64,000 bases of DNA from an uncultured bacterium (GCA_963844965.1 CAWJQC010000008.1:92185-156184); one strand, 5' to 3'; shown: positions 4,106-54,380, numbered from the stretch's first letter. The notes: generated by a model from the sequence alone, not told the origin. Program-made: numbers and translations.

Positions 4106-4479
4106 TCAATGCAAAGTCGCGCTACTATCCATTTTCCCGGAAGATCTTTCGTCCATAACAACGGCCTGCTCGCGTTCTTCGCCGAATTCCTCTTCCACCT
4201 CAACATCTCCCTCCTCTGTTTCCTCGGGCCCCGCAAAAAATAAATCTGTTTCGTAGTTAGTGAACTTGTGCAAAATACCGTTGAGGGACCATTACGAATA
4301 TAGGCGCTGAAAAGCTCCCGGCCGTCGGCGCGCCTGAACTTATTTGAAAGAGAAAGGCACAGATCTTTGAACCCGGAAATGAAACGCTGCAGTTCCGGCG
4401 ATGGATTCGTAAAATCGGCCGGAATAATGTCTGGGACCTCTATTATTACTTTCAAAACGACCTCCGCTTGATGGAACAA
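4106..4479 (-). CDS. hypothetical protein with apparent -1/+1 frameshift near 4275-4290 (acidic C-terminal tail in the alternate frame)
   Basis: The N-part MFHQAEVVLKVIIEVPD...SAYIRN continues in a second frame as ...LNGILHKFTNYETDLFFAGPEETEEGDVEVEEEFGEEREQAVVMDERSSGK...*. The track ORF tail looks non-coding. Confidence 0.3.
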
Positions 4480-4536
4480 GATTCTGGAAACAAGAATACA
4501 AAATTTACCGGATTATTTCAAGTTGGTTTCTAAGGA

Positions 4537-5776
4537 TCAATGTTTTAATGGGAATTTCCTGCAGAGTTTTTTCACCGCGCCGTTCACATTCCTGTTTTGC
4601 GCCAAAACTTCGTCTATCAGCCGCGCGACCTCCTTCATCTCTTTTTCTTTCATGCCGCGTGTCGTGAGAGACGGCGTGCCGATTCTTATTCCCGACGGGT
4701 CAAAGGGCGGCCTGGTGTCGTAAGGCACCGTATTTCTGTTCACAATAATGCTATTCCGCTCCAGACGATCCTGCGCTTCGCGGCCGGAAATTCCGAAATT
4801 CGTGAGGTCAATAAGCATCAGGTGATTTTCCGTACCGCCAGAGACAAGATTGAAACCACGATGGACGAGTTCACGGGCAAGAGTGCCGGCGTTTTTAACT
4901 ATCTGCCTACCGTACTTTTTGAAGGACGGCTGCATAGCTTCGTAGAGGCACGCAGCGATGGCGGCGGTTTGGTTGTCGTGCGGTCCGCCCTGAAGCGCCG
5001 GGAACACCGCCCTGTCAATTTCCTTGCCGATGTCAATTTTCTTCTTAAGGGCAAGCGGCGATACTCTGATTGGCGAAAATCAGCGCGCCGCGCGGTCCGC
5101 GCAGGGTCTTGTGCGTAGTCGTGGTCACGACATCGGCGTAAGGAAACGGCGAGGGATGCGCACCAGCGGCGACGAGACCGGCAATGTGAGCCACGTCCAC
5201 GAGAAGATAAGCGCCAACCTCGCGGGCTATCTTCCCGAATTTTTTGAAATCAAACTTTCTTGTATAAGCGGTCGCGCCGGCAACGATAATCTGCGGACGC
5301 TCTTTGCGCGCCATTTTTCTCACTACTTCGTAATCAATGAAGCCGTTGCGGTCAACGGAATACTGCGCGGACTTGTAAAATCGCGCGGAAAAATTCACCT
5401 TCCAGCCGTGCGTCAAGTGACCGCCGAAGGGAAGCGACATTCCCATGATTTTTTCTCCCGGCCGGAGCAGGGCGTAATAGACAGCCATATTCGCCGGCGA
5501 ACCGGAATACGGCTGAACGTTCACATGCCAATTTTTACCAAGATGGAAAACTTTCCTTGCCCTCTCCTGCGCCAATAACTCAATCTCATCAATCACCGAA
5601 TTGCCCGCGTAGTATCTCTTACCCGGGTAACCCTCGGAATATTTGTTGGTTAGCGCGGACCCCAGTGCCCCGAGCACTCCGGCCGAAACGATATTCTCCG
5701 AGGGAATCAAGTCCAGAGTGTCGTTCTGACGCCGCGTTTCTTTTTTGATTAAATTTTCCACAATCTTGTCGCGCAT
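4537..5776 (-). CDS. glyA: serine hydroxymethyltransferase, split by a single frameshift near 5045-5075
   Basis: The 5045..5776 ORF matches the SHMT N-terminal two-thirds (…[18 protein letters not shown]). In the adjacent frame the sequence continues …[29 protein letters not shown]… into ORF 4537..5007 (…[16 protein letters not shown]…). Confidence 0.85.
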
Positions 5777-5853
5777 TCGTTAATTTTACACTTTTGCGCG
5801 CAGGAAAACAAAACAGCGCACGCGGTGGCGTGCGCCAATTCTCAAATATCCCC

Positions 5854-8370: not shown

Positions 8371-8411
8371 GAAAAAAAACAAACACCCCTGCGCGCTACG
8401 CGTCAGGGGTG
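8371..8411 (-). terminator. Rho-independent terminator overlapping the stop codon
   Basis: CACCCCTGcgcgctacgcgtCAGGGGTG stem followed by TTTGTTTTTTTT on the minus strand. Confidence 0.65.
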
Positions 8412-8912
8412 AAACTTCCTGATGATTCTCACCGAAAAGTCGGCCGCAAAAAATTCCTTGTCCCTCGGGCACTTTTTCCCATATGCCTCGGGGTTGGTTT
8501 GATAATCCACGATGTGGCCGACTTCATGGAACAAATCGCCCACCGTCGCGTCCTCCTGAAGGATAATCTCATTAGTGTCGGGCCAGCAGAACGATGTGCT
8601 TGATTCTTCAATGCCAACGCGGTAGCAGAGATACAGGTACGGCCGTAAAAATGTCTTTCGCATGTCCTTCGGCAGAATATAAACGCGCGGGACATCCAGG
8701 TTGCCAAGGCCGGCGCGCGTCAAACCACCGTGAGCGATAAATTCCTTCGTGCTGTCGCGACGCAAGAGAAAACCCGGATTGGAAATAATGCTGAAGCCGA
8801 CAGTGACGTAAAAAAAGGCAAAGATTATGCACGCGTAGACCGGACCGCGAAACAAATCGGGCAGCGGCTTGGCCAAAAAATCAAACCAGAGCCAGCGCAG
8901 GGATTTTTTCAT
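8403..8912 (-). CDS. membrane-anchored putative Zn-metallopeptidase (HExxH)
   Basis: 169 aa, N-terminal TM segment, HEVGH motif. Confidence 0.5.
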   Translation of the reverse strand: MKKSLRWLWFDFLAKPLPDLFRGPVYACIIFAFFYVTVGFSIISNPGFLLRRDSTKEFIAHGGLTRAGLGNLDVPRVYILPKDMRKTFLRPYLYLCYRVGIEESSTSFCWPDTNEIILQEDATVGDLFHEVGHIVDYQTNPEAYGKKCPRDKEFFAADFSVRIIRKFHP

Positions 8913-9087
8913 GAACCACCTCGGTTTATATGTCCTCAGGATCCTATTCTTAGATTACCACTATTTGAAACAAAATCTACCGCACGGCTCCATGGTCCGT
9001 GCCTGTATATCACATGGCAGATACTGCGCAAAAATCAAAAATCTTGTACAATACAGGTCAGCAACTATAAAAACAAGGAGGTGTTTC

Positions 9088-9417
9088 GTGGCGGAGGAAA
9101 AAAATAATAAGCAGAAACTCGCTGCTATCATCGCGTATGTAAGAAAACGGCGGAGGGAATCCAGAATAAAAATCGGCGTACCCCAGCCGCAAACCTCATG
9201 CTGGGGCGGTGGCATAGGAGAATTCGGCAATCTTGTTGAACTTAGTTTACCGTACAGACACGAAGAAGAATGGGATGAGCTCAAGGACCAGGAAACCCTT
9301 GACGGCGTACACCGGTATGTTTCCTATAAACCGCCAAAAAAACCAGAAAAAATGAAGGGAGCCGCAATTAGCGGCCCTTTTTATTTTTTTTGGAGGTGCC
9401 TCACCCGAGGACGTTAG
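9088..9417 (+). CDS. hypothetical small protein (GTG start; 3' end uncertain, ORF runs through a terminator hairpin)
   Basis: Sigma70-like promoter TTGTAC-16-TATAAA (9044-9071) and RBS AAGGAGG precede GTG 9088. The longer track ORF 8869.. was rejected. Confidence 0.35.
   Translation: MAEEKNNKQKLAAIIAYVRKRRRESRIKIGVPQPQTSCWGGGIGEFGNLVELSLPYRHEEEWDELKDQETLDGVHRYVSYKPPKKPEKMKGAAISGPFYFFWRCLTRGR
9361..9391 (+). terminator. Rho-independent terminator
   Basis: GCCGCaattaGCGGC then CCTTTTTATTTTTTTT. Confidence 0.6.
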
Positions 9418-9421
9418 AACC
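9395..9421 (+). repeat. E1 repeat copy a (GGTGCCTCACCCGAGGACGTTAGAACC), immediately 3' of a terminator
   Basis: One of four related ~27-nt copies at 9395, 10364, 11375 and 11685. Confidence 0.7.
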
Positions 9422-9456
9422 TGTTTTACAGAAATGGCCAGCAAATTGTGAGTCCG

Positions 9457-9480
9457 GCAGGTTCGAATCCTGTAGGGGTG
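9457..9480 (+). other. tRNA 3'-end-like fragment (T-arm GCAGG-TTCGAAT-CCTGT plus 3' acceptor strand), no matching 5' half
   Basis: Canonical T-loop TTCGAAT in a 5-bp stem followed by AGGGGTG. No complementary CACCCCT acceptor 5' strand was found upstream. Confidence 0.45.
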
Positions 9481-9497
9481 TCTGCTCCAGAACTGTG

Positions 9498-9533
9498 TTT
9501 GAGAGGAAAAACGATACGACGTATATATTCCGG
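9498..9533 (+). promoter_or_regulatory. E2 repeat copy a: conserved sigma70-like promoter (TTGAGA-17-TATATA)
   Basis: tttgagaggaaaaacgatacgacgtatatattccgg, near-identical to 10739-10775. Lies upstream of ORF 9657 with a ~120-nt structured leader. Confidence 0.55.
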
Positions 9534-9656
9534 GCCTAGGGCCAACCAACGAGTCGGCTGCCCGTCCTTGACGATTACCAGCTCCTTGTGCTTTCATCTA
9601 AATGGCTGGCGAGCCGCAAGCGAGCCAGACTACTTGACAAAGGAGGAAGTGGCCCA

Positions 9657-9950
9657 ATGAGAAACGGGAAACTTCTGCAAATTCCAGGTACTGAACTTTG
9701 GAACGGTTTGGAGGCTCTGCAGGTGGGGGGTGTCACGCCCAACCTGTGGCAGCGTCTCCGCTTAGATCTTTATTTTAGACGATATGCTGTCGAGATGATG
9801 GTCCAAGAGAACATACGCCACCCCGGCCTTTCCGAAGCGGTGGAAGGTTTCCATTACGACACCCCTCGCTCCAAACTCGCTAACGGACTTCGGGAAAGGG
9901 GTTTCTATGTTGTGAAAGGTGAGATACGTAGAGGCCCTCGAGCCACATAG
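9657..9950 (+). CDS. hypothetical protein (GC-rich cassette ORF 1)
   Basis: RBS AAGGAGG 8 nt upstream of ATG 9657; 97 aa. Confidence 0.45.
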   Translation: MRNGKLLQIPGTELWNGLEALQVGGVTPNLWQRLRLDLYFRRYAVEMMVQENIRHPGLSEAVEGFHYDTPRSKLANGLRERGFYVVKGEIRRGPRAT

Positions 9951-9969
9951 CACGTGGCCAGTACACGCA

Positions 9970-10287
9970 ATGGACATCGTTTTCTACCCAATACAGCCAT
10001 TCCGCGCTCTTAATCAGGAAGAGGCCAGAGCTGAGCTCGACGAACGCAAGGTCCGTCCTGCTTACACCGAGGAATTTCTGCGTTTTTGCATGACCAAGCT
10101 TGCATTGGATACCACCTGTAGCCGACAAATCGGCGGGGTGGTAGCTCTGAATGCCTACCGAGATGATTGCGGAGTTCGCGAATATCTTTGTCTGGATCGC
10201 CGCCTTGACGGCAATCCGGCATTGGGTTTCTGGCACCCCGAGCCGACTTTCCCTGGGACGTGGGCGTTTCTGGGAGTCAGGCCATAG
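9970..10287 (+). CDS. hypothetical protein (GC-rich cassette ORF 2; alternative GTG start 9919)
   Basis: 105-122 aa. A strong terminator follows directly. Confidence 0.4.
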   Translation: MDIVFYPIQPFRALNQEEARAELDERKVRPAYTEEFLRFCMTKLALDTTCSRQIGGVVALNAYRDDCGVREYLCLDRRLDGNPALGFWHPEPTFPGTWAFLGVRP

Positions 10288-10318
10288 GTTCAATCTTGCA
10301 GATCGAGCAACTGCTCGT

Positions 10319-10349
10319 CGCCACGACAAAAAAATCGTGGCGCTTTTTT
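10319..10349 (+). terminator. Rho-independent terminator
   Basis: GCCACGAcaaaaaaaTCGTGGC then GCTTTTTTA. Confidence 0.7.
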
Positions 10350-10363
10350 ACGAAAAACACCAG

Positions 10364-10390
10364 GGTGCCTCACTAAAGGACGTCAGAACC
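10364..10390 (+). repeat. E1 repeat copy b (GGTGCCTCACTAAAGGACGTCAGAACC)
   Basis: Follows a terminator, as in copy a. Confidence 0.7.
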
Positions 10391-10493
10391 AGAATAATCG
10401 GGGCGTTACTGAAAAATCGGTATATTTACATACCGGATTTAACTTTGCCAATAACTGCGAGGTAAAGGAATCTATCAGATTTGATAAGCTTCT

Positions 10494-10682
10494 TTACTTT
10501 CCGGCCTTGTCTAAAATCTTTGAACCTATGTTTATTGAACCGACCAAGACAACACCCGCCAGAATTGCATAAATAAGAGAAAATCCTATCGTATCAATCA
10601 AGTATAACGAGAACATAAAAGAAATGCAGACGATTATAATAGCCGGAATCCAAATCAACAAGTAGCCGAGGAGTTTTTTCAT
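10494..10682 (-). CDS. small two-TM membrane peptide (hypothetical)
   Basis: 62 aa, strongly hydrophobic. Confidence 0.35.
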   Translation of the reverse strand: MKKLLGYLLIWIPAIIIVCISFMFSLYLIDTIGFSLIYAILAGVVLVGSINIGSKILDKAGK

Positions 10683-10738
10683 AGATTTATTTTACCTTAT
10701 TTTACCCCACCCCACCACTCACCGTATCTCCAGGCATA

Positions 10739-10775
10739 TTTGAGCGGAAAAACGATATGACGATATATATTCCGG
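10739..10775 (+). promoter_or_regulatory. E2 repeat copy b: conserved promoter (TTGAGC-18-TATATA)
   Basis: tttgagcggaaaaacgatatgacgatatatattccgg. Lies upstream of ORF 10912. Confidence 0.55.
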
Positions 10776-10911
10776 ATGTAAAATCGCAAAATATTCCAGG
10801 CCATAGGCAGTATCGACAATTTTTCTCATCTGTTATATAAGGGATATAGGCCCGCCAGCAAGTATGCGGCGGATGAGGCAGTTTACATCATAAAACAAGG
10901 AGGCGAACGCA

Positions 10912-11316
10912 ATGCGACGATTTGGATTTCTGGCACTCTTTTTGGGAATGACCATTCTGGGGACGTCTGCGCTGGCGGGATCCGCCAAAGACGGCGAATA
11001 TGTTCTTGAAAAAAATCAAATACAACCCATGGGTGAAGATAAGAGCTGCGGTCCATATTTTATCCTGACCACATATGGCGGGCGTTCTGCGGAGAGGATT
11101 GTCTTTCATTTCGTTGACGATGATGGAAAGATTCAGGCCGACGCAATCAAGATTTCGATGGTTTCGGTCGTCGGCGACAAAGACAAAAAAGTCCCAACCG
11201 TTCAGTTCGAAAAAAACGAGGACGAGAGGACAATGATTTTGCGAATTAGCCCGGAGGACAGGCAAGAGGCAACCTGCCTTAAAGCCAAGAGCGACGATAC
11301 CAAAGGAGGCCGCTGA
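10912..11316 (+). CDS. secreted hypothetical protein (signal peptide)
   Basis: RBS AAGGAGG; N-terminal MRRFGFLALFLGMTILGTSALAGSA signal-peptide-like segment; 134 aa. Confidence 0.5.
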   Translation: MRRFGFLALFLGMTILGTSALAGSAKDGEYVLEKNQIQPMGEDKSCGPYFILTTYGGRSAERIVFHFVDDDGKIQADAIKISMVSVVGDKDKKVPTVQFEKNEDERTMILRISPEDRQEATCLKAKSDDTKGGR

Positions 11317-11340
11317 ATCTAAACGGCCCCTTTTTCTTTT
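11308..11340 (+). terminator. Rho-independent terminator overlapping the stop codon
   Basis: GGCCGctgaatctaaaCGGCC then CCTTTTTCTTTT. Confidence 0.6.
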
Positions 11341-11374
11341 CTCGACGCCCTAAAAATATCAACATTTTTCGCCG

Positions 11375-11401
11375 GGTGCCTCACTTGAGGATGTTATTGT
11401 T
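11375..11401 (+). repeat. E1 repeat copy c (GGTGCCTCACTTGAGGATGTTATTGTT)
   Basis: Follows a terminator. Confidence 0.6.
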
Positions 11402-11515
11402 TCGAAAAGAAAAAACCGCCTCGGAAAACCAAGACGGTCGATGCACGTTTCCAGTACATTGGCTTGAGTGAACGGACGGCGAGGGGTATAATGAAGTTAC
11501 TAAAGAAGAAATAGC

Positions 11516-11617
11516 ATGGCTCATCGCGGAGGCAAGAGAACGAAAAATAAGAGGAACCGAAAAGCACGGCGAAAGTTTAATAGTCGGGTTATTTTCCCGT
11601 CAGAAAGAAGGAGATGA
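11516..11617 (+). CDS. very basic 33-aa peptide (MAHRGGKRTKNKRNRKARRKF...), speculative
   Basis: Short ORF not in the track; no strong RBS. Confidence 0.15.
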   Translation: MAHRGGKRTKNKRNRKARRKFNSRVIFPSERRR

Positions 11618-11684
11618 TATCGTGGGCAGTCCGGTCGCGCCGACATGGTAGCCGTATCTGTCCCTCGATAATAAAAATACTTGG

Positions 11685-11711
11685 GGTGCCTTGTTGGATG
11701 TGTTTAGAACC
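11685..11711 (+). repeat. E1 repeat copy d (GGTGCCTTGTTGGATGTGTTTAGAACC; 3-nt deletion variant)
   Basis: Shares the GGTGCC…GTTTAGAACC ends. Confidence 0.5.
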
Positions 11712-11764
11712 GTGAATTGGAATGAATTACGGGAAGGTATGGCGAATTTAAGCTTTGTGGGCGG

Positions 11765-12181
11765 TTAATAAACCCAGATTCCAATAGCAAGCAGGATAAT
11801 CCGCACGAGCATAAAGGCAATTAAGTGGAGCATATAAAATATACCCTTTTCGAACATATCAATGCCCCAAATTTTGAAACAGATAAGAATGACGGCGGAG
11901 TGGACGATAAGGTAAGAGAAACTGCCAATTATCCGGTTGACAGATGGAGGAAGGCCGTTGGATTGGCGCATCCTTCCGAAAGTCATTGCGGTAAAAACGA
12001 CAGAAACCAACACGAGGAAGATACCGATTACGATCGTTGGGATGAGGGGTGAAATAAACGATTGCCACAATTGCACGAAAGGCGCATCAAGGGCGTTAAA
12101 TATCGGCTGGAGCATTTGGGTCGCCGAGGCGACAGCGCTGGAGGAATACACTGGGAAGATAACCGGCGGTGTAGATGTCAT
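11765..12181 (-). CDS. hypothetical integral membrane protein
   Basis: 138 aa, 4 hydrophobic segments. Confidence 0.45.
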   Translation of the reverse strand: MTSTPPVIFPVYSSSAVASATQMLQPIFNALDAPFVQLWQSFISPLIPTIVIGIFLVLVSVVFTAMTFGRMRQSNGLPPSVNRIIGSFSYLIVHSAVILICFKIWGIDMFEKGIFYMLHLIAFMLVRIILLAIGIWVY

Positions 12182-12246
12182 CCCAGCAACATACAGCAGT
12201 TATGGCGGGCTGGTCAATTGGTGGCCGCGGGTTATATAATATCTTT

Positions 12247-13482
12247 AATGAAAATCGAGAGCCAAAAACTCAACGTAACCGAGGCGTTTAAAAACTTCTA
12301 TTACATCGTCCCGCCGTATCAGCGGGAGTATGTTTGGAAGGAGAGAAACGTTGCCCAGTTATTTAACGATATTTACGACGAATATACCAACGATAAAAAC
12401 TCCGAATACTTTATCGGCAGTATCGTCGTAAATAAGCGTGAGGATGGCACATACGAAGTGATCGACGGCCAACAGCGATTAACCACTTTATTTATTAGTC
12501 TTTGTGCGCTTAAACGTGTGTTCAAAAATTCCCAAGATCATTTAAGCGTTATAGAAAATCTGCTCACTTCCCCGACGACGAACGATAAAGGCGAAATCAT
12601 CCGCAGCTCCCATCTTGAACTGCAATATGAAGGCACAGCAGACATTTTACGCGATATTTTGAATGACAAGGAATTAAGCAAAAAAACGTCTGGTTCGGCA
12701 GAACACATCAAAGAAGCCCTCGAAACCATCCTCGAATACCTGAACGCAAACTTCAAAACAGAAAATGACCGAACGCGGTTTTATGGATATTTTATGCACA
12801 AGGTAAATTTTGTGCAGATTGAAACGCCGAGCGTGAGCGACGCTTTGAAAATTTTTGAAACGATCAATGAGCGCGGCGTTGGCCTGAATCCGATGGATTT
12901 GCTCAAAAATTTGATATTTCAGCAATTGCCACGCGACGAGTTTCAAAAGGTTAATGTCGAATGGAAGAAAATAACGAGGACGTTGGAAAAGAATGGGCAG
13001 AAGCCACTCCGCTTTTTACGCTACTTCATAATGGCCAACTATCAGGTCAAGGATACTAAAGACGTCGAGGTTGTGCGTGAGGACGAGATTTACGACTGGG
13101 TGGTAAGACACGCCGAGGTTTGCGGCTATAGGAAAGATCCATTCGGGTTTGTGGGAAAAATCGCCACAGATGCCGAAGCCTACGTTTCATTTTTCAACGG
13201 TATGACGCTGGAGGGCAAGAATAGCGTCGAATTGGAAAACATCAGGAGCTTGGGCGGCGGTGCATTCAGCCAACATTTAGTTATGCTGCTTGCGGCCAAA
13301 GAGTTGCCCGAAGACCTTTTTCTTCATCTCGTTCGACAGGTGGAAAGCTTATCTTTTACTACTTCATTACGAAAACTCCCGCGAAAGCACTGGAAGCCCG
13401 TTTTTCCCGATGGGCGGATGATTTGCGTGATGTAGCGGGCGATGCAGATCAAAAAGCCGCCCTCAATAAATTCATAATGTAA
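12247..13482 (+). CDS. DUF262 (ParB-like nuclease / GmrSD-BrxU N-terminal domain) protein, frameshifted near 13345 and ending inside the IS3 terminal repeat
   Basis: N-terminal YYIVPPYQREYVWK…VIDGQQRLTTLF is the DUF262 signature (DGQQR). The alternate frame after ~13350 reads …LIFYYFITKTPAKALEARFSRWADDLRDVAGDADQKAALNKFIM*. No DUF1524/HNH-like C-terminal domain is present. Confidence 0.7.
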
Positions 13483-13534
13483 AGGATAGGTTTCTTTAGA
13501 CAGTGATTCGACGGCTTTTTGCCGTTTTTTTTCG

Positions 13535-14317
13535 TTAAGCCGCAATCTTCTCGGCAAACACGGACGGCGGCATCTTGAGGGCGGAGTGGATCCGCGTGTG
13601 GTTGTACTGCCACAAGGTGCTGTAGATCTCCGCCACGAGCTCGCCGAAGGTCCCGAACCGGTTGGGATCACCGAGGTCAATCTTGAACTTGTCATAGAAC
13701 GATTCCTGGTAGCCGTTTTCCCATGGGGCACCGGGCCGCGACCGCGAGATCGTGATGCCACAGTCCCCCAGTGTATCGGTGAACGCTCGTGCCTTGTACT
13801 CGCTGCCGTTGTCCGAATGGAAGATGACCGGATGCGGATGGTGGAAAAGCGCGTTGGCCAGGGTCTGTATCGTGAGGGGCGATCCTTTCCGCAACGCCAC
13901 ATGGACGCCCATCAATCGTCTCGTGAAAAGATCGAGTATCGTGGACACGTACACTTTCTTGCCGCGATACAGGAACTCCGTGAAATCGGTTGCCCAGACG
14001 TGGTTCGCGTACGAGGGCATGATGGCAAGTAAGAGGTTCGGAAAGGCCCGCGATGCCTTTGATTTCCGGTATTTCCTGCCTCGCCTCCGGTACGGCCTTA
14101 TGCCGAAGATTCGCATGACGCGCTGCGCTCGCGGACGGCTCACGCCCAGAGCTTGTCCCAAGCGCCGGGAACCGTATGCCGGATGGCGCTGCAATTCTTC
14201 TTCCATGCGGATCTTGAGCGCCCAATCTTTCTTGTCCTGCCGTGATACGTAGTAGAGCGATGCCCGCGAGACGCCCATGGCCCGCGCCATGGCGGACTTG
14301 TTCCGCTTTTCCGTCAA
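13535..14317 (-). CDS. IS3-family transposase OrfB (DDE integrase core, rve domain), expressed as OrfAB fusion by -1 frameshift
   Basis: HSDNGSEYKARAF…ITISRSRPGAPWENGYQESF (DDE/rve). The -1 frame from the CCAAAAAAAG heptamer gives KELTEKRNKSAMARA, which continues OrfB. Confidence 0.8.
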   Translation of the reverse strand: MTEKRNKSAMARAMGVSRASLYYVSRQDKKDWALKIRMEEELQRHPAYGSRRLGQALGVSRPRAQRVMRIFGIRPYRRRGRKYRKSKASRAFPNLLLAIMPSYANHVWATDFTEFLYRGKKVYVSTILDLFTRRLMGVHVALRKGSPLTIQTLANALFHHPHPVIFHSDNGSEYKARAFTDTLGDCGITISRSRPGAPWENGYQESFYDKFKIDLGDPNRFGTFGELVAEIYSTLWQYNHTRIHSALKMPPSVFAEKIAA

Positions 14318-14577
14318 TTCTTTTTTTGGGCCTGGGAGAGCTTCACGGTGAGCTCGCCCACCACTTCAAACAGCTCCCTGTTCTGCTTCTGGAGACGGCT
14401 GAACTCGCCCCAGGAAGGGACGCCCGATGCTCCTGCGCCTAGCCAATTGTAGATGGTGGACTCGTGCAAACCGTGGTCCTTCGCAGCCTGCGCTACGGGG
14501 ACTCCTTCTTCCTTCACCCGGCGGAGGATGTCCGCCTTCACTTCCTTCGCAATCCGATGCCCTTTTTTGTTGCTCAT
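14314..14577 (-). CDS. IS3-family transposase OrfA (HTH)
   Basis: 87 aa, helix-turn-helix. Ends KLSQAQKKN* at the A7G slippery run (plus 14320-14328). Confidence 0.8.
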   Translation of the reverse strand: MSNKKGHRIAKEVKADILRRVKEEGVPVAQAAKDHGLHESTIYNWLGAGASGVPSWGEFSRLQKQNRELFEVVGELTVKLSQAQKKN

Positions 14578-14719
14578 GACACAATGGTAGTTTGTTTCGA
14601 CCTTTGTGTCTAAATTATCCTATCCGGGTCAGTTGAACTCAAAACAGTTTGCCATCAATGCGGATTATTGTTATAAACAAGGCAGCATGACGCCACCCAA
14701 AGCGAAACAAGGAGAGGGA

Positions 14720-15427
14720 ATGAATTTGAAGCTCGGCTTTTCTACCGGCTGTTTACATAGGGCACAATTGCATATTCGTGAGAAGCTGGCCATCATTCAA
14801 AAAATGGGCTGTCGCGCCGTGGAGCTCGGATATGTCAGACTGAAGGATTTCAATTCCGGCGAGCTTGAAACGATAACGACCGAGAATCTCCACGATTTTG
14901 ATCATGTCAGCTTACACGCACCAAAGTTCGATTATGGCAACAACGATGGAACTATCGGGATATTCGAACGAATACGAAAACTGAACAGGGTAAGAAAATT
15001 GGACCTGGTTGTTTTTCACCCCGACACCATCGTCGATCTAGACGTTTTTACGAGAGCCGATTTCAATGTGGCTCTTGAGAACACGGACAACAGAAAAGAA
15101 TTTTGTCGGCGCCCAGAAGAGTTAGAACGATTACTTGCTGGCAACAACTTCGGATTTGTCCTCGATGTAAACCATGTATACAGCAATGATGCCTCGATGA
15201 GGATGGCTGCCGAGTTTTATAAAAAGCTTGGCGGTAGGATTTCCGAGGTTCATCTGAGTGGTTATCGTGGTTACCACGAGCCGCTTTTTGAAACGAAGCA
15301 AGTCGAAATTGTACAGTCAATAATAGATTTCGGCGTGCCGATAATCGTGGAGGGAGAACTGACCCCGGAAAATATCCAAAGTGAACAAGAATATATTCTG
15401 GGCATCATCGGCGGGCTTGAACAATAG
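14720..15427 (+). CDS. sugar phosphate isomerase/epimerase (xylose-isomerase-like TIM barrel)
   Basis: RBS AAGGAGAGGG then ATG 14720. MNLKLGFSTGCL…VELGY…VFHP…HLSGY is the pattern of the AP-endonuclease-2/TIM-barrel family. Confidence 0.55.
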   Translation: MNLKLGFSTGCLHRAQLHIREKLAIIQKMGCRAVELGYVRLKDFNSGELETITTENLHDFDHVSLHAPKFDYGNNDGTIGIFERIRKLNRVRKLDLVVFHPDTIVDLDVFTRADFNVALENTDNRKEFCRRPEELERLLAGNNFGFVLDVNHVYSNDASMRMAAEFYKKLGGRISEVHLSGYRGYHEPLFETKQVEIVQSIIDFGVPIIVEGELTPENIQSEQEYILGIIGGLEQ

Positions 15428-15580
15428 GTCCGCTTTTTGTTTTTCCCACTTCTGACAAATGAACTTTGTGTACGTCGTGTACGTCCTACGGGACCGGGGT
15501 AATTGCCCCGTTCAGCAGTCCTGGCAGTTTTTGCAAGTATTCCCCGAGTCCCAATAATGTCCACTATTTCCACCAAAAAT

Positions 15581-17278: not shown

Positions 17279-17492
17279 TGTGGTTCCCTCCTTTGTAAAA
17301 AAGCTGATGCTCAACTGTTAGTTATTATAATTCCCATTCACCGCCGATGTCCACCGCCCTTCTCCGCAATTTTGACAAATTGCTGACCGTCGCGTAGTAT
17401 TAAGAAGATTGCGCAGTCAAAAGAGGGTTCAAAAGCCCCATTAAAAAGCCATAATCAAGCCCAGAATAAACAGCCAAATAATCGCGCAGGAA

Positions 17493-17955
17493 TTGCGCGT
17501 GATAGACGAAAGCGGGAAGAACCTCGGCGTATTGAAGCGGGAGGAGGCGCTTGCCTTGGTGAGGCCCGGGTCGGGAATCGATTTGATAGAAATCTCGCCG
17601 AACGCGAAGCCGCCGGTCGCGCGGCTCATGAGCTACGACAAATATCGTTACGAGGCGGAGAAGAAAGAAAAAGGAGCGCCTCGCGCAAAAAGGCGCCGGT
17701 ACAAAACAGGTGCAAATAAGCGCCCGCGCCGCCACGAATGATCTCCTGATAAAAATCCGCCAGCTGGAAAAATTCCTTGCCGAAGGCCACCAAGTTGAGG
17801 TGCATATGCGCCTCAGGGGGCGCGAAAAATATAATAAGGACTGGGCACGGAAGAAACTTAACGATTTTATGAAGATGATAACAACCGAATATAAGGTGGT
17901 AAGCGAACCGAAATTCGGCGGGAGAGGAATGATAATGCAAATAACCAAAAAATAA
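17493..17955 (+). CDS. infC: translation initiation factor IF-3, split by a frameshift in an A5 run near 17683
   Basis: N-part LGVLKREEALALVRPGSGIDLIEISPNAKPPVARLMSYDKYRYE and C-part (17710..17955) …LIKIRQLEKFLAEGHQVEVHMRLRGRE…KVVSEPKFGGRGMIM match the IF3 N- and C-domains. Non-ATG start (TTG/GTG), as is common for infC. Confidence 0.8.
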
Positions 17956-19527: not shown

Positions 19528-19530
19528 TGG

Positions 19531-21923: not shown

Positions 21924-22054
21924 CCCGTTAGAAATAGGGCGCAACGCCGCCGCTCGTCCTCTTTATTATTTAATATTCGGCCATTTTGTTGATGTAATAT
22001 CCGCAAAGCGTCCGCGCCTGCCTGCCGGCAGGCAGGATTTCTAACGGGACCCAT
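21919..22054 (-). mobile_element. MITE-like element copy 1 (TIR TCCCGTTAGAAAT; flanks ATGGG/ATGAG) between the clpB-like stop and the MFS start
   Basis: On the minus strand: ATGGG-TCCCGTTAGAAAT…ATTTCTAACGGG-ATGAG. Contains the 20-bp palindrome at 22017-22036. Confidence 0.6.
22017..22036. repeat. perfect 20-bp palindrome CCTGCCTGCCGGCAGGCAGG (copy 1 of 3)
   Basis: Identical at 31099-31118 and 38023-38042. Confidence 0.9.
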
Positions 22055-34650: not shown

Positions 34651-34660
34651 GAAACCTAAC

Positions 34661-45390: not shown

Positions 45391-45396
45391 GCTGGT

Positions 45397-45670: not shown

Positions 45671-47363
45671 TTAATCTGTCTGCTGTTTCCACTCTATCCT
45701 GCCGGTAACCGACTCCACTTCGTCAAAACTCGTTAAACCCTGAAGGACCTTCAGAATTCCGTCGGCTTGCATGCTCACCATTTCCTGGGAGTCCGCGAAT
45801 TTTTTCAGGGCCACCTCCGATGCCTCTTTCAGTATCACTTCTTCCAAGGCAATGCCTCCCTCCAAAAATTCGTACACTCCCACGCGGCCGCGGTAGCCGA
45901 GGCCGCTGCATTTCGCGCAACCGACTGGTTCGTAAACATTTATTTTCTCATATGCGGCCTGGTTCACCCGTTTCGGTAAATTATCCAAAAATTTTTGTAT
46001 CTTGGCTCGGAAGCCACCGTCCAACGCTTTCGCCTTCTTGCATTCGGCACAAAGGCGCCGCACGAGACGCTGGGCGATAATCAAATTGAGCGCCGGCCCG
46101 ATACTCACGGCTTTCACGCCCAAATTTATCAGGCGTGGGACGGCACCGACGGCATCATTCGTGTGAAGCGTTGAGAGGACCAGGTGGCCGGTAAGCGAGG
46201 CTTGAAGCGCAATATCCGCAGTATCCAAATCCCTGATCTCACCTACGAGAATTATGTCCGGGTCCTGACGCACGACCGCCCGCAACCCCTTCGCGAACGT
46301 ATAGCCGGCCTCGGAATCAACCTGCGTCTGTTCTATGCCCGGAATCCTGTACTCTATTGGATCTTCAAGGGTTATTATTTTTATTTCGGGGCTGTTAACC
46401 CTCTTCAAAAACGCGTAAAGGGTGGTGGTTTTCCCGGAGCCGGTGGGACCAGTGTTTAAAATAAGGCCGTTGGGCTTTTCTATTTGGCGATTTACAATAA
46501 CGAGGATCGTCTTCCCTTATGCCCAGCCCGCCGAGGTCAATCGCGATAACATCCGGGTCCAGGATCCGCAGGACAATGGTCTCGCCGAATTCCGCCGGTA
46601 TAACCGAGGCGCGAATTTCTATTTCCTTTTGCCCGAAACCTATCGTGAACCGACCGTCCTGTGACTCGCCTTTTATATTTATCTTCATTCCGGAGAGAAG
46701 CTTGAGGCGCGAAACCAAGGACTCGTAATTCTTAAGCGGCAACTCCTCGAAAATATCGTGCAACAAGCCGTCAACTCTGTAGCGCATGCGCGCGTTTTTC
46801 TCCCCGGCCTCAAAATGTATGTCGGACGCCTTAAGACCCATGGCGCCGGCCAGGACAACCTCGATAAGAGTGACCGGGGTCGTCTTTGTAAAATCCAATT
46901 TTCCTATTTCGCTTTTTACCGCGGAGAAATTAACGAGTATCGCGGAGAGTTCTTCAAGCCGCTTTTTTTCGATTTTCACCTTGCCGGTAATCTCTTCCGC
47001 CTCCGGTTTGACAAATTTATAAAAGCGCCAGGCGTCGCCGAGTCCCGAAAGTGACGTGACGAACGTTTTTACCTCGTATTTTTTATTTTCCAGGTCTTTG
47101 ATAATTTTTTGCACCGCGGGCGCGCGGGGATCGGCGGCGGCTAAAGCCACTCTCCTGACCTTGACCTCAATCGTTGCGACCCTCGCGCCGCGCGCCACAT
47201 CTTCCAGAACAAGTTTTAACGCGTCCGTGGAAACGGGGGTCTTGGATAAATCCACATAAGGAAACCCTGCGTCACTAGCCAAACGTTGCGCCGCCCGCTC
47301 CTCGCCTTCGCGGTGGAGAACGGTAAGTTTACTTTGCAGAACGGATGGCTTTTGAGGATCCAT
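45671..47363 (-). CDS. GspE/PilB-family secretion ATPase (type II/IV pilus assembly), split by one frameshift near 46500
   Basis: N-terminal GspII_E_N-like domain (…DAGFPYVDL…). The alternate frame supplies NTGPTGSGKTTTLYAFLKRVNSPE (Walker A). The C-part has the tetracysteine motif CAECKK…CAKC. Start ATG (plus cat 47361-47363) is inside MITE-like copy 2. Confidence 0.8.
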
Positions 47364-47483
47364 CCCGTTAGAAATAGGACGCGGATAAAGCCACCGCGCC
47401 ATTTTTAATTTTTTGTAGTGCTCTGACCATTTACAATGATTCTTCTATTTTGCAACGCATCCGCAATTTCTAACGGGATCCAT
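47359..47483 (-). mobile_element. MITE-like element copy 2 (TIR ATCCCGTTAGAAAT; perfect 5-bp direct repeat TCCAT/ATGGA) at the gspE/pilB start codon
   Basis: On the minus strand: ATGGA-TCCCGTTAGAAAT…ATTTCTAACGGG-ATGGA. Confidence 0.65.
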
Positions 47484-47585: not shown

Positions 47586-47653
47586 TAAAGTAGTTTAGTT
47601 GGCAGTAATACCAGCCGAGTTCATTGGCCGGAAATCACAAGGAGGATAGGACC

Positions 47654-48439
47654 ATGAAGAAACGATTGATTCTGTCGCAACTGATTGTATTTCTATTCGT
47701 CGTTTTCGTATCCATCTCAATGGCCACGCAAGGACAGCATTCCACACCCGCGCCACGAAGCAGCCCCCCTGGCGGTGGCCAAAAAGTTGTTGCGCCACCC
47801 ACGCAACGCGGCGGCCCACAACGAACCACTCCGGCACAACTACAACGTCCCACCCAAAATCGAACCTATCGCATTCCCGCGCAGGGACCTTTGCCACAGG
47901 CGCGCGGTGGCCCCGGTGTTTACAACCGATCATATTATCCGCAAATGCCCAGTCCGCGCCAGAACAACCGGCGACGGTTTAGTGGAGAATATCGCGGCGG
48001 TGAAAGCCGCTTCGGCGGCTACGGCGGGCGCTACTTCGGTGGCGGACGCAACCGCGGTTATTACGGCGGTTTGAGGGGCTACGGCGGGAGAAGCCACGGC
48101 TGGGGGTATGGGTACCACAGTTGGAGCTATATCTGGTTTTTACTCTTCGGTTTTGAATATGGACCACCCCCTTGGTATTGGGATCCGTTCTATTGGGATT
48201 CGTCGTACTATGGCGCCTACTGGGGACCGTGGTTCGGAAGGTGGGGGATCACCTATTGCCCGTATCCGTACTATCCATACTATCCATACGATGCGGCCAT
48301 TGGCTACTGCGGTCGCACCGGTGTGAAGTTTGACACCGGCGAGATCACGGACAGCACCGACAAAAAAATCATCCGCGAGAGCGAAGTATACGTGGACGGC
48401 CCTACGCCGGCATTGTTAAGGACTTTGACGGCCGGCTGA
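47654..48439 (+). CDS. secreted Gly/Tyr/Trp/Arg-rich low-complexity protein
   Basis: RBS AAGGAGG; N-terminal MKKRLILSQLIVFLFVVFVSISMA signal-peptide-like segment; GGYGGRYFGGGRNRGYYGGLRGYGG…PWYWDPFYWDSSYYGAYWGPWFGRWG. Confidence 0.55.
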   Translation: MKKRLILSQLIVFLFVVFVSISMATQGQHSTPAPRSSPPGGGQKVVAPPTQRGGPQRTTPAQLQRPTQNRTYRIPAQGPLPQARGGPGVYNRSYYPQMPSPRQNNRRRFSGEYRGGESRFGGYGGRYFGGGRNRGYYGGLRGYGGRSHGWGYGYHSWSYIWFLLFGFEYGPPPWYWDPFYWDSSYYGAYWGPWFGRWGITYCPYPYYPYYPYDAAIGYCGRTGVKFDTGEITDSTDKKIIRESEVYVDGPTPALLRTLTAG

Positions 48440-48474
48440 GGGGTGGGCTTCGTTTAGGCGCTGGAAATCATAAT

Positions 48475-48840
48475 GTGGAGGTGCGGTTGCCAAACAACCA
48501 AACCTTCACAAAGGAAGTGGATGTGCGGCAGTGTCAGGTTACGATTATACACATCCCACAACCTCCGCACCCCGCCACTTCCGGCTCGGCCACCCAACCC
48601 CAAAAGACAGAACCTCGGCAGGAAGGGAAAGTGAGCAAGCAACAAGACGAGAAGCTTGCCACCCCGACCCCGCCGATCACTGCCCCCGGCAATCCCGCCG
48701 GGCAGTCAACCGAGGATGAATTGGGGCAGCTACAGGAAGCGCGCAAAACGACAGCTGACGAGAATGCGCGCATCTTGAAGGAGTTGGACGAAGAAATCCA
48801 GAAGTTGCAGCAGAAAGCAAAAGAAGGAAACAAGCAATAA
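48475..48840 (+). CDS. hypothetical Pro/Thr-rich protein with C-terminal coiled-coil (GTG start)
   Basis: 121 aa; co-transcribed with 47654. Confidence 0.35.
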   Translation: MEVRLPNNQTFTKEVDVRQCQVTIIHIPQPPHPATSGSATQPQKTEPRQEGKVSKQQDEKLATPTPPITAPGNPAGQSTEDELGQLQEARKTTADENARILKELDEEIQKLQQKAKEGNKQ

Positions 48841-50562: not shown

Positions 50563-50826
50563 CGGTTCGTCCGACCCTTGGCCCAAATCAGTTAAAACAG
50601 ACCCATCTTCCTACGCAGCTCCAGTTGCGCAAGAAATCTACGAACGGCGCCGACCCATTGCAAAACGACATGCTTTGGTAAGCGGCCGTTTTTGATTGTT
50701 TGACACGGACACACGGGGACGATTTGCAATCCAAAAAATTGTGGTAGAAAATTAGTTCAACGACGAACCCAGCTGTCGTGGGCAGTCTCGTTTCAAATTA
50801 ACCGGAGGACGCACTAACGATTATCA

Positions 50827-53251
50827 ATGGCGATTGTCAAAAAAATAATTTTGATTATATTCATAATCGGCGCCGTAGGCACGGCAACCTCTGTTTTGGC
50901 ATATTTTTATTTTGCTAGAGATCTTCCTACTATGGAGCAGATAAAAGACAGGCAAATAAGTCAATCTACAAAAATCTACGATAAGACGGGAACGGTGCTT
51001 TTGTACCAAATAAGCGGCTCGGAGGACAGGACCATCGTCCCATTCGAAAGCATCCCGCAGAATTTGAAGGACGCAACCATTGCTATTGAGGATAAAAATT
51101 TTTACAACGAACCCGGATTCTCGTGGAGCGGCTATCTGCGAGCCTTTATCACGAACCTCGTTCACGGGCAAATACTACAAGGCGGTTCAACAATTACCCA
51201 ACAGTTGGCAAGGAACACCTTCCTCACGACGGACCAAACCGTTACCAGAAAAATCAAAGAGCTCATACTGGCCATAAGAACTGAACCGCTACTATACCAA
51301 AGACCAGATACTTGCGCTCTACCTCAACGATATCCCGTACGGCCCTACCGCCTACGGAGTGGAGGAGGCCAGCCAAGAATATTTCAACAAATCCGCGCGG
51401 GATTTGAACCTCGCCGAAAGCGCCACGCTTGCCGCGATTCCCAAAGCCCCAACTTACTATTACCCCTGGGGAAATCACGTGAGCGACCTCATAAGCCGCG
51501 AGAAACTGGTCCTGGAAAAAATGCTTGAACTCGGGAAAATCACACAGAAGGAATACGACGGAGCGGTGAAATATAAAATCGTTTTCGCGCCGCAGGGGAA
51601 AGAAATAAAAGCCCCGCATTTCGTGATGGCTGTTCAGGATTACCTTGCGCAAAAATATGGTGAGGATATGGTGCGTGAGGGTGGCCTTCGCGTCGTGACT
51701 ACTCTTGACTGGAATCTTCAGCAGATCGCAGAAAAAGCGGTCGCCGACGGTGCCGCGCAGAACGAATCCCTCTACCAAGGAAAAAACGCGGCGCTCGTCG
51801 CCGAAGACGCGAAGACCGGCCAGATACTCGCCCTGGTCGGTTCGCGCGACTATTTTGACACGAAAAACGACGGTAATTTTGATGTCGCAACACAAGGATT
51901 ACGCCAGCCGGGTTCTTCCCTAAAACCATTCGTTTACCTCACGGCGTTCGAAAAAGGGTACACTCCCGACACCGTTGTCTTTGACGTGCCGACCGAATTC
52001 GCGGCTAACAATCCCGTCTGCCCGCCGAATCCCGATTACAAAAACGACAATCCGCAATGCTTCCATCCAGAAAATTTTGACGGCCAATTCCGCGGACCGG
52101 TGACCCTAAGGCAAGCCCTTGCTCAATCTATAAACGTCCCCTCGGTAAAAGTTCTTTACCTTGCCAGCTTGAACGATTCGGTGAAGAACGCCTACAACTT
52201 CAGCCTGACGACGCTCACCAACCCGAACCTCTACGGTTTGTCGCTGGTTTTAGGAGGAGGAGCTGTTAAATTAATTGACCTGGTCGGAGCCTATTCGGCT
52301 CTTGCCCAGGACGGCATCAAGCATGCACAGTCGATGATACTGGAGGTTAGTGACGCCACAGGGAACACGTTGGAGTCTTATCAGGACGAGAACACCAAAG
52401 TCTCCGATCCACAACCAATAAGATTGGTCAACAACATCCTCTCCGACGCGGAAGCGCGCAGTGGGCTTTTTCAAAACAGTTTAGACCTCACCGTCTTTCC
52501 GGATCACGATGTGGCGCTCAAAACTGGGACATCCAACGACTACCGTGACGCCTGGGCCATCGGCTATACTCCCTCGCTCGTTGTCGGCGTCTGGGCCGGA
52601 AACAACGACAACTCTCCGATGCAGCGTCATGGTTCAAGTATTCTGGCCGCCGTCCCGATATGGCACGCTTTCATGGCCGAAGCCATAAAGAATCTGCCGC
52701 TTGAAACATTCAATCGTCCCGACCCAACTAACCCGCAAAAGCCGATCTTAGCCGGAAATTACCTGTACAACAAACAGATTCATACAATCCTTTATTATGT
52801 TGACAAGACGGACCCCGAAGGCCCGCCCCCGACAAATCCATTCAACGATTCCCAGTTCGTGAACTGGGAATACGGAGTTCTCGCGTGGGCCAAAGATAAT
52901 CTTCCCGACTTTTCTAGCTATAACCAGTCAATAACCACAACAAACCAGGCGACAAGCACGTCCGTAAATATCCCGCCAAAGATTGAAATAAAAAACCCTG
53001 TGGTCGGTAGTTTTATAAGCGGCCCGATAAATATCAACGCCGCAATCACGGCTTCCGCTCCGATTGCTAAAATAAGGGTCTATTTCAACAACCAACTCGT
53101 CGACGATTCAGGTCTTAGTGGTAGTTTAAACTACAATTTTAACTGGTCGTTCACGCCCCGAGACACACAACCGCAAAATTTGATCCAAGTGGAAGTAGTA
53201 GACCAAAACAACATTTCAACGCGCGAGGGAGTAATTGTATATGGCCAGTAG
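50827..53251 (+). CDS. class A penicillin-binding protein (transglycosylase + transpeptidase), split by a frameshift near 51290-51320
   Basis: GT51 motifs EDKNFY and GGSTITQQLA in ORF 50827... The transpeptidase body (…SLKPFVY…KTGT…) is in 51359..53251, and its frame continues upstream as TKDQILALYLNDIPYG. Confidence 0.85.
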
Positions 53252-53266
53252 CCGATTCTAAATTCG

Positions 53267-54380
53267 TCAACTGTTCGCTATGGGTTTCAGAATATAAAGA
53301 TACGAATTATCGTTGGGTGATTTTATAAGAGCTGGTTCGCTGTCGCTTGTGATCCCCAAAAATACTTCTTCCGCTTTCAGGATTTTAATAACGTCGGCCA
53401 AATATCTCCAGTTAAAAATAGTTTTATTTGGTTTTCCTTGAATTTTCGCCGGCAACAGATATTTATTCTCACCAATAACCTGGTCAGACGATTCAACCTC
53501 TAGGACTTTTTTATTTTCCTGGATATTAAGGGTTGTCTCGCTGCTCCTTGTCCCAAAAATGCCGGCTAACTTCAGAGCTTCGGTAAATTCCTGTTTATTG
53601 ATTATGATTTCCGCGCCGAACTTTCTGGGTATTATCGCATTATAATCGGGGAAGTTTCCTTCGATCAGGCGCGAAAGGAATTCTAATTGCTCGGTTTTAA
53701 ATAATATTTGATTACTATCGTGGTAAATCCTGACGATATTCATTATTATTCAGGATTCTTATAAGTTCTTGAGTTGTTTTTAAAGGAATAAGAACTCTGA
53801 AATTTTCCTTGGAATTAGCGGTAAATTCTGAAGAGTTTATTGTCTTCTCAGCTAATCTAAAGCTGTCGGTTGCGGCTAATTTAATATTATTCACCGAAAA
53901 TTCAAACAAAACACTATTTAACTCCGGTCTCAAATCGGAGAATTGAGAGGCGACAAGTACTTGATTAAGTGCTTCTCTGAATATTTCTGTTTTTATTTCT
54001 ATATATTCTTCGTTATTTTTTATCTTCGGAGTTATAGGAAAATCATCAGCCGCAAGACCGTGGACCGAAGCGTTATAATTATCGGTTTTTATTTCCAATT
54101 TATTTCCCCTTTTTTCTATATTTAATCTTTCGCTTTGAATATTATTTATCAGATTATAAATCACACTTATCGGCACGGTGAACTTTCCGTTTTCAATAAT
54201 TTTGCCTGATATATTACAACTTATTGCAATTTCTAAATTAGTAGTTGTTAGTCTTATTTTATTATTCTCAACCTCAAAGAGAACGTTTTTTAATATCGGC
54301 AAATTCAGATTGTCTCCGGCTCCTCGTTCGGTCACCGCAAGGCCGTCCTTTAGGTTTGTTTTAATAACTATAAATTTCAT
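53267..54380 (-). CDS. dnaN: DNA polymerase III beta sliding clamp, split by a frameshift near 53715-53745
   Basis: N-terminal MKFIVIKTNLKDGLAVTERGAG… is typical of DnaN. The C-part is in ORF 53267..53743. Confidence 0.8.

Follow-up and report, generated by a model that had tools for sequence, protein, structure and literature searches.

The closest described counterparts of the locus analysed here are long-read assemblies whose consensus retains small insertions and deletions. In nanopore assemblies such indels break up gene calls, and for metagenome bins covered below about 40x polishing is required (PMC9262707); errors that break genes apart are, moreover, a recognised problem of long-read assembly (PMC12007338). 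Nanopore read errors induced by base modification have been described as well, at least in the parts of the reports drawn on here (PMC11610603; bioRxiv 10.64898/2026.01.14.699587), the second of which treats substitution errors specifically. Many frameshift-interrupted genes are also found in decaying genomes, such as those of Mycobacterium leprae, Sodalis and recent endosymbionts. Core genes for replication and translation are spared in these genomes, which show nonsense mutations, deletions and sequence drift.

The window, a stretch of 64,000 nucleotides, is a faithful copy of the deposited contig of an uncultured Paceibacteria/Parcubacteria (CPR) genome. Fragment proteins of its broken genes are on record for that 156,184-nt NCBI/ENA contig, so the frameshifts stem from the assembly as deposited and not from any later step. 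Open-reading-frame, profile and orthologue comparison mapped 13 single-base indels in ten genes of the window, with a net balance of 10 insertions to 3 deletions and a density of about 20 per 100 kb. The genes affected are glyA, infC, a clpC/clpB-like gene, a beta-CASP RNase gene and polA (each hit twice), the gene of a pilB/gspE-type ATPase, the PBP1A gene, dnaN and two conserved hypotheticals (3964-4455 and 47609-48837). Hence about ten of roughly 60 genes, including dnaN, infC and polA, are disrupted, which is far more than expected for an intact genome. All lesions at the 13 sites are 1-nt indels, with no nonsense codons or larger deletions. It is very probable that the broken genes reflect errors of one base, arisen in sequencing or in the consensus of an indel-prone assembly, and not biology; in the living organism the glyA, infC, clpC, beta-CASP RNase, polA, pilB/gspE, PBP1A and dnaN genes are almost certainly intact. 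The sites are the following:

4147-4149, minus strand: conserved hypothetical (3964-4455), 1-nt insertion GAA[A]GATCTT, where the frame goes back to the main ORF
4226-4232, minus strand: same gene, 1 nt lost from a G4/C3 run, offset further along the gene by the insertion at 4147-4149
5049-5066, minus strand: glyA (4540-5776), +1 frameshift, the extra base probably being T at 5063 (GAG[T]ATCG)
17668-17672, plus strand: infC (17445-17955), +1 frameshift in an A5 run in the Lys/Glu-rich linker, IF3_N and IF3_C in different frames
23337-23341, minus strand: clpC/clpB-like AAA+ gene (22057-24629), 1-nt deletion right after GATCGG, from orthologue comparison
32258-32262, minus strand: beta-CASP/MBL RNase (RNase J-like, 31147-32525), first +1 frameshift, A4 to A5, from the L081 orthologue
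32108-32112, minus strand: same gene, second +1 frameshift, proposed extra T at 32110 (GAG[T]ATCGG)
40547-40548, minus strand: polA (39633-42151), first +1 frameshift, extra T within GATC (GAT[T]CTTGG), from a Logan contig
40334-40338, minus strand: polA, second +1 frameshift in GGATTCTTCG, where the choice of the extra T is a probable one
46504-46505, minus strand: pilB/gspE-type secretion (Type II/IV) ATPase (45674-47402), +1 frameshift GATC[C]TCG, T2SSE profile split
48400-48401, plus strand: hypothetical (47609-48837), 1-nt deletion, from a Logan contig and L082
51279-51280, plus strand: PBP1A (50827-53248), +1 frameshift AGA[A]CTG, Transgly profile split, one-base repair
53736-53737, minus strand: dnaN (53270-54380), frameshift net +1 (or -2) where AATAATAATGAATA meets TCG, DNA_pol3_beta_2 profile split

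The earlier note had listed ten split genes, of which nine were borne out as broken, or as having an internal stretch out of frame, at the places given or close to them, the exception being the DUF262 gene, which is intact. It had also stated that both halves keep their family signatures, and Pfam profile positions indeed continue across the pieces. Thus, the SHMT profile of glyA covers 4-248 in the piece 5048-5779 and 270-399 in the piece 4540-5007, the T2SSE profile of the secretion ATPase 10-133 and 134-369, the Transgly profile of PBP1A 5-99 and 98-177, and the DNA_pol3_beta_2 profile of dnaN 1-84 and 87-116, each pair in different frames. The DNA_pol_A profile of polA falls into three pieces (2-80, 80-150 and 151-380), the last two in different frames, while the frame pieces of the clpC/clpB-like gene carry AAA on one side and AAA_lid_9, AAA_2 and ClpB_D2-small on the other, and those of the RNase carry Lactamase_B on one side and Beta-Casp and RMMBL on the other.

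Orthologues also locate the breaks, one intact orthologue from a relative matching each broken gene as adjoining segments in different frames. For glyA, the intact orthologue (L125) matches in frame -1 and then in frame -2. The infC junction is backed by ORFs of 35 relatives, and the segments of L085 stop at 17672 and resume at 17680. In the clpC/clpB-like gene, orthologues read ...FPV(I/V)G(A/S/T)(T/S)YP... and the window is one base short there, as supported by at least 120 ORFs. At the first RNase site the L081 orthologue reads STPAAKDFAELML, and in the window STPATK and DFAELLL fall in successive frames; at the second, PVE followed by IGNF fits the orthologue VDVGPF only with one base removed. 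The orthologue sequence at the second polA site is APKGFSLLALDYSQ. In the ATPase, REDD plus LVIVNRQIEKP equals the orthologue in length, and the gene lies in one frame in L001, L002, L003, L081 and L082. Residues 22-151 of the L081 PBP1A match frame +1 and residues 151-821 frame +2, with the meeting point at 51278/9. The loop length of the dnaN orthologue is compatible with a true sequence of either window -1 or window +2.

The conserved hypothetical 3964-4455 follows a different pattern. An earlier call had placed a split gene at 4106-4479; the indels were confirmed, but the real gene is 3964-4455, and it is not split, since its two indels compensate and the ORF stays open throughout, leaving 28 internal residues out of frame. 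The homologue P0381 reads ...VVMDEDLPGKW at 4147-4149, which the window matches after removal of one A, and between 4228 and 4148 the alternate frame reads VEEEFGEEREQAVVMDE, identical to P0381, while the main frame there has no similarity; coding potential also switches frame at 4226-4232. With both sites repaired, 138 of 166 positions are identical to P0381, as against 116 before. The other hypothetical, 47609-48837, is a further split gene, absent from the earlier list.

Thirteen one-base edits yielded ten uninterrupted ORFs with no internal stops, all of which align with orthologues, in a single end-to-end alignment for the nine that have close relatives. Repaired glyA is a 413-aa ORF aligned over 3-411, infC aligns over 1-169 with 80.6% identity and one gap, polA aligns over 2-840, and the RNase with both repairs aligns with the L081 protein over its full 463 residues. 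Identity on either side of the breaks is similar (79/82% for infC, 66/80% for clpC, 67/71% for PBP1A and 63/74/67% for polA). The earlier advice to merge gene calls across frames is sound: the breaks being almost certainly artefactual, the gene pieces should be merged. The comparison with close relatives proposed at the same time found every broken gene intact there: the genes are single ORFs in the syntenic relatives L081 (window 29.7-55 kb), L085 (17.4-30.7 kb), L001-L004 and L082. Among the homologues listed, at least 120 in each case, the PolA proteins, leaving out those cut by a contig end, all measure 800-870 aa and the beta-CASP proteins all about 440-500 aa. The species of the window is absent from the representative genomes scanned, in which the best RuvB match was 75%. 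A homologue search with six concatenated junction windows gave no 100% match among the matches listed, which were mostly beta-CASP homologues.

An independent comparison came from five Logan contigs, a k-mer assembly of run ERR10755942, which overlap the window over 10,842 nt at 99.7-99.9% identity with 12 discordant places. These contigs reach four of the 13 frameshift sites (clpC, polA 40547, hypothetical 48401 and dnaN), and all four fall among the discordant places (chance about 4e-9). At two of the four the Logan sequence keeps the reading frame. At polA 40547, contig L167 lacks the extra T and reads a single frame GLILDYRENFKILSTY..., matching the orthologue SILNYRESFKILSTY, and at 48401 one T more is present in contig L165 (GGC[T]CCTAC), which reads a single frame SEVYVDGSYAGIVKDFDGRL, in agreement with L082 (...EVYADG.YVGVVKDFDGRL). 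At the other two sites, clpC 23340 and dnaN 53736, Logan has another indel and is out of frame as well: L083 reads GATCG-TTCAC against GATCGGCTCAC, and L164 has one A more exactly at the dnaN site. None of the four covered frameshift alleles is therefore common to both assemblies, indicating that the indels are consensus errors. Logan also has four frame-breaking indels of its own, at PBP1A 52813 (G4 to G3), clpC 23727, polA 41877 and polA 41082, places at which the window and all relatives are intact. Taken with the intact orthologues, the restriction to 1-nt indels and the conservation past the breaks, the absence of a shared Logan frameshift allele upholds the earlier view of an indel-prone assembly as against biology.

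The density, the adjacent ORFs in different frames, the indiscriminate hits in essential genes, the one-base repair and the disagreement between independent assemblies of the same data at the sites are all shared with long-read (Oxford Nanopore/PacBio CLR) assemblies and low-coverage long-read MAGs, in which roughly 20 single-base indels per 100 kb are likewise found (PMC9262707; PMC12007338). The window departs from the classic long-read pattern of deletions in long homopolymers, in that most of its events are net insertions and runs of five or more are not enriched. Deletion bias is what is usually quoted for nanopore consensus, and the 10:3 excess of insertions runs against it.

The sequence context of the errors was also informative. 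Homopolymers had been proposed as junctions by the earlier note, and the A5 runs it had in mind do exist at 17668-17672 and 32258-32262 (T5 on the plus strand), 10-30 nt from where it had put them. As the main error context, however, they failed: no homopolymer enrichment was seen among the 13 sites, since runs of at least five occur at 2/13 and runs of at least four at 3/13, both at background, and the dominant context is GATC. Net insertions at runs no longer than two bases account for the majority of events, the longest run at any site being A5. With the motif chosen post hoc, GATC lies within 5 nt of five of the 12 discordant places, where 4.6% would be expected (p = 1.3e-4), and three of the 13 window indels adjoin an intact GATC within 5 nt (p = 0.016, again for a motif chosen post hoc). 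At one further window indel the Logan allele restores GATC, and three others regain it if repaired. The local contexts GAG[N]ATCG, GAT[T]CTT and GATCGG recur. As a lead only, an 8-mer, GAGTATCG, is common to two junctions, and is not significant alone once pairs are counted.

This enrichment suggests methylation-linked nanopore miscalls. The clustering within a few bases of a short palindrome is the one seen in nanopore errors at methylation motifs such as Dam GATC, although those papers, in the parts drawn on here, concern read errors and substitutions, while the window has indels in a polished consensus and its GATC methylation is deduced. According to the proposed mechanism, the reads would be long ones from a platform prone to indels, Oxford Nanopore being the likeliest, and coverage of this genome would be low; Dam-like 6mA methylation at GATC would disturb basecalling or consensus and leave many errors beside GATC, and the deposited consensus would keep residual single-base indels, each shifting the frame of an otherwise normal gene. 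We lean towards taking the errors as the mark of a Dam-like GATC methylome in this lineage of Paceibacteria, a reading more likely than real, tolerated frameshifts in core genes. No DNA methyltransferase gene lies within the window.

Three other explanations have to be weighed. Collapse of co-occurring strains, or mis-polishing, in place of raw read errors at a modified motif, is improbable. Strain mixing is frequent in metagenome bins, and Logan does show a few substitutions relative to the window (22438 and 41406); yet divergence is only 0.1-0.3% and concentrated at indels beside GATC or in homopolymers, mixing yields substitutions and not frame-breaking single-base indels in essential genes, and the indels private to the Logan k-mer contigs point to the reads.

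Genuine decay, in which a host-dependent CPR cell gathers real frameshift pseudogenes, seems still less probable. Genome reduction and a symbiotic way of life are features of CPR bacteria, the deposited contig itself contains the frameshifts, and the second assembly is likewise out of frame at clpC and dnaN, all of which would suit it. Against it, dnaN, infC, polA, glyA and PBP1A are struck at once; the earlier note had held a simultaneous inactivation of IF3, Pol I, the beta clamp and RNase J to be biologically implausible. Unlike decaying genomes, the window has its core genes struck and no nonsense mutations, larger deletions or drift, and conservation is kept past the breaks. The two assemblies of the same population share none of the four alleles, two sites are intact in the other, and Logan has different genes broken. 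Bacterial mutation is deletion-biased, and 10 insertions versus 3 deletions is the opposite. It is equally doubtful that some of the nine indels outside Logan coverage, or the clpC and dnaN sites, are real, with frameshifted core genes tolerated through recoding or population-level complementation.

Programmed recoding, in which real frameshifts are bypassed by ribosomal +1/-1 frameshifting or transcriptional slippage, is hardly credible: mechanisms of this kind exist (prfB +1, dnaX -1, IS3 -1, poly(A) slippage in insect endosymbionts), the IS3 element of the window bears a classic A7G slippery site and three of the +1 sites include an AGA codon, but no slippery motif or stimulatory element is common to the 13 sites, no frameshift is conserved in any orthologue (all in one frame), the longest run, A5, is too short for slippage rescue, and the assemblies disagree on the very DNA sequence at the sites. 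The -1 frameshift of the IS3 family (orfA-orfB), with two overlapping ORFs in different frames, applies only to the element at 13484-14625, which has the canonical A7G run and terminal inverted repeats, and the 13 error sites have nothing comparable.

The contig, and presumably the whole bin, is unfit for pseudogene counts, gene-content or metabolic inference and protein-family building until frameshift-corrected or polished. The errors lie mainly beside GATC and in very short runs, so that most would escape a check confined to homopolymers, and the compensating pair in 3964-4455, which garbles 28 residues within an open ORF, means that ORF-length tests miss errors too. Public Logan k-mer assemblies of the source run offer a cheap independent check that does not need the reads.

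Several other candidates were discarded. The DUF262/GmrSD_N gene was rejected as split, as it has an ATG at 12249, a normal N-terminal domain position and continuous coding potential to the stop at 13435; ORF 11937-12239 was rejected as a piece of it, being in another frame, reaching its stop 10 nt before that ATG and matching no family. Plus-strand frame changes at 19460-19541, 24558-24641, 28519-28608, 32528-32591 and 33859-33895, and a minus-strand change at 24722-24775 with single support, were shadow-ORF or gene-boundary effects. A short MFS gene (226 aa) and ORF 24647-24988, considered as fragments, are of the same size or separate genes in relatives. The overlaps TsaE/LTD, PyrG/next gene, HK/polA and UDG/HU represent normal borders between neighbouring genes, and L081 has the first two as well.

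The window was found, by Pfam scans and by comparison with relatives, to be a gene-dense chromosomal region from a member of the Candidate Phyla Radiation (Paceibacteria/Parcubacteria), whose RuvB is about 75% identical to that of the nearest species representatives. The JGI contig L081 is syntenic with the window at 29.7-55 kb, and another, L085, at 17.4-30.7 kb. The genes assigned were as follows:

argS, folD, glyA; infC-rpmI-rplT; polX; a clpC/clpB-like AAA+ gene; UDG; HU
a beta-CASP RNase gene; a murein ligase gene; ruvA; pyrG; fpg; a histidine kinase gene
polA, tsaE, ruvB; a pilB/gspE-type ATPase gene; yebC; ruvC; the PBP1A gene
dnaN-dnaA; rnpA-yidC-jag; type IV secretion-like genes

A tRNA-Arg (CCG) at 28454-28528 (-) is the sole RNA gene detected in the 64 kb by ARAGORN and Rfam.

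The earlier note had named ten genes as split across frames, and this observation was confirmed for nine of them; the analysis added one further gene and a compensating indel pair hidden within an open ORF. In the named genes, parts of a single Pfam profile run consecutively across neighbouring pieces, as for SHMT in glyA (4-248, then 270-399), T2SSE in the type II secretion ATPase (10-133, then 134-369) and DNA_pol_A over the successive polA pieces (2-80, 80-150 and 151-380). When every stop-to-stop ORF from 162 related loci was searched in translation against the window, one relative's ORF matched adjoining segments in differing frames at glyA, infC, clpC, beta-CASP (twice), polA (twice), the T2SS ATPase, PBP1A and dnaN, and also at a hypothetical gene split at 48400 that was absent from the earlier list. 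The codon-usage frame profile, which is independent of homology, showed the same frame switches and additionally pointed to 3980-4275. The tenth named gene, that for DUF262, is intact, reading in one frame from the ATG at 12249 to 13435 with its domain at the usual N-terminal position. In total, 13 indels were counted in 10 genes; the stretch at ~8400-15430 may hold hidden ones. Since the fragment proteins recorded for the 156,184-nt NCBI/ENA contig match the window's fragment calls exactly, the frameshifts are part of the deposited assembly.

The compensating pair lies in a conserved hypothetical gene at 3964-4455 (-), whose ORF is open, yet carries 28 residues in the wrong frame, bounded by the loss of one nucleotide at 4226-4232 and the gain of one at 4147-4149. 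Among the homologues retrieved by exhaustive search, the 166-aa protein P0381 contains exactly what the alternate frame reads, VEEEFGEEREQAVVMDE, and the repair raised identity to it from 116 to 138 of 166 residues. Checks of ORF length are blind to errors of this type.

Residue-by-residue comparison with orthologues fixed most sites within a few bases, and the lesions were classified as follows:

Net +1 (n = 10): glyA; infC; beta-CASP (two); polA (two); T2SS ATPase; PBP1A; dnaN, where a 2-nt deletion fits orthologue loop lengths equally well; 4147
1-nt deletion (n = 3): clpC; 48400/1; 4226-4232

Thirteen one-base edits turned each gene into a single ORF with only the terminal stop left. The repaired genes align with their orthologues, in one end-to-end alignment in the nine that have close relatives (for instance, infC over 1-169 with 80.6% and one gap, clpC over 29-857 with 73.5%, and polA over 2-840), and similarity after each break equals that before it. 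Neither nonsense codons nor larger deletions nor drift occur in the lesioned genes, and such a pattern is not what pseudogene decay leaves behind.

A key observation came from a separate assembly. A search with the clpC fragment gave a 100% match, also in the Logan assembly of run ERR10755942, and cluster look-ups yielded four further Logan contigs of this run. The five contigs together overlap 10,842 nt of the window, to which they are 99.7-99.9% identical, and disagree with it at twelve places; all four window frameshift sites within this span are among these (chance probability ~4e-9). At polA 40547, the extra T is absent from Logan, whose unbroken frame reads ...GLILDYRENFKILSTY..., and at 48401 Logan carries one T more than the window and likewise stays in a single frame, SEVYVDGSYAGIVKDF...; both readings are exactly those predicted by the orthologues. 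At the clpC and dnaN sites, the Logan indel differs from that of the window and the frame is still broken. Logan also has private frame-breaking indels at PBP1A 52813 (G4 to G3), clpC 23727, polA 41877 and polA 41082, at places that are intact in the window and in every relative. That two assemblies from a single population break different essential genes and share no frameshift allele is best explained by noisy, indel-prone reads.

The non-shared alleles, the one-base repairs and the intact orthologues support the interpretation of the earlier note, namely that the split genes are an artefact of an indel-prone assembly and not biology; the doubt left is slight, with nine of the 13 sites lying outside independent coverage. 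Strain collapse or mis-polishing would be a minor variant of this explanation. Which genes are hit, the lesion spectrum, the undiminished conservation and the fact that no allele is shared all contradict genuine genome decay. Programmed recoding of these genes is contradicted by the lack of a common or conserved signal at the sites and by the fact that the DNA itself differs between assemblies.

As for the error context, the homopolymer runs proposed earlier did not hold: runs of at least 5 nt occur at two of the 13 sites and of at least 4 nt at three, neither above background. GATC, a motif picked post hoc, lies within 5 nt of five of the twelve Logan-discordant places (expected 4.6%, p = 1.3e-4), and at a sixth it is present in the Logan allele. 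Intact GATC adjoins three of the 13 window indels (p = 0.016), the polA 40547 lesion is an insertion inside GATC according to the Logan allele, and homology-favoured repairs would regain the motif at glyA and the second beta-CASP site; at the second polA site, one of two equally long repairs would restore it. The recurring local forms are GAG[T/G]ATCG, GAT[T]CTT and GATCGG. Modification-linked nanopore miscalling is a known phenomenon (PMC11610603), and we infer that the GATC-linked errors reflect such miscalling at a presumably methylated, Dam-like motif in what would be nanopore data. The density, ~20-26 detectable indels per 100 kb, would be expected of a low-coverage long-read bin, and bins below ~40x have been reported as needing polishing (PMC9262707). 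Gene calls should be joined over each of the 13 sites, and the bin should be polished before it is used.

The Logan contig L083 differs from the window at two places, 22438 and 23340; on the coding strand, each difference includes a C in the window against a T in Logan two bases past GATCG, which resembles a substitution miscall specific to that context.

One frameshift should not be "corrected". An IS3-family insertion sequence at 13484-14625 (-), with 19-nt terminal inverted repeats, has orfA (HTH_Tnp_1) and orfB (rve) overlapping at a CCCAAAAAAAG run (~14316-14326; A7G); this programmed -1 frameshift is a natural one, and the only true one in the window. The element lies, with the DUF262/GmrSD_N gene, at ~8400-15430 among ORFs that alternate between strands and are weak or lack an assignment. 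This stretch has nearly no counterpart in relatives, only ORF 14591-15424 matching one locus (L098), and in L085 the distance between argS and infC is ~2 kb. The stretch has the appearance of a mobile or defence island.

An MFS-like gene at 21285-21962 (-), about half the usual size and covering the MFS_1 profile in its first half only, was considered as a fragment and rejected: its 226-aa product has the same length in L085 and three other related loci (L086, L087 and L089), and it is thus a genuine short gene.

In L081, greA and rpsT (16391-17133) lie between ruvA and the pyrG-adjacent gene; in the window counterpart (34488-34936), rpsT is at 34661-34936 (+) and greA was not seen at this position. 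An origin-type layout is present at 53270-57860, with dnaN-dnaA (-) divergent from rnpA-yidC-jag (R3H) (+), and G+C falls to 0.365 at 54-56 kb. Finally, a type IV secretion-like cluster at 59210-63433 (-) comprises a T4SS pilin (PF18895), a TraG/VirB4-type P-loop ATPase and several ORFs without a family match.
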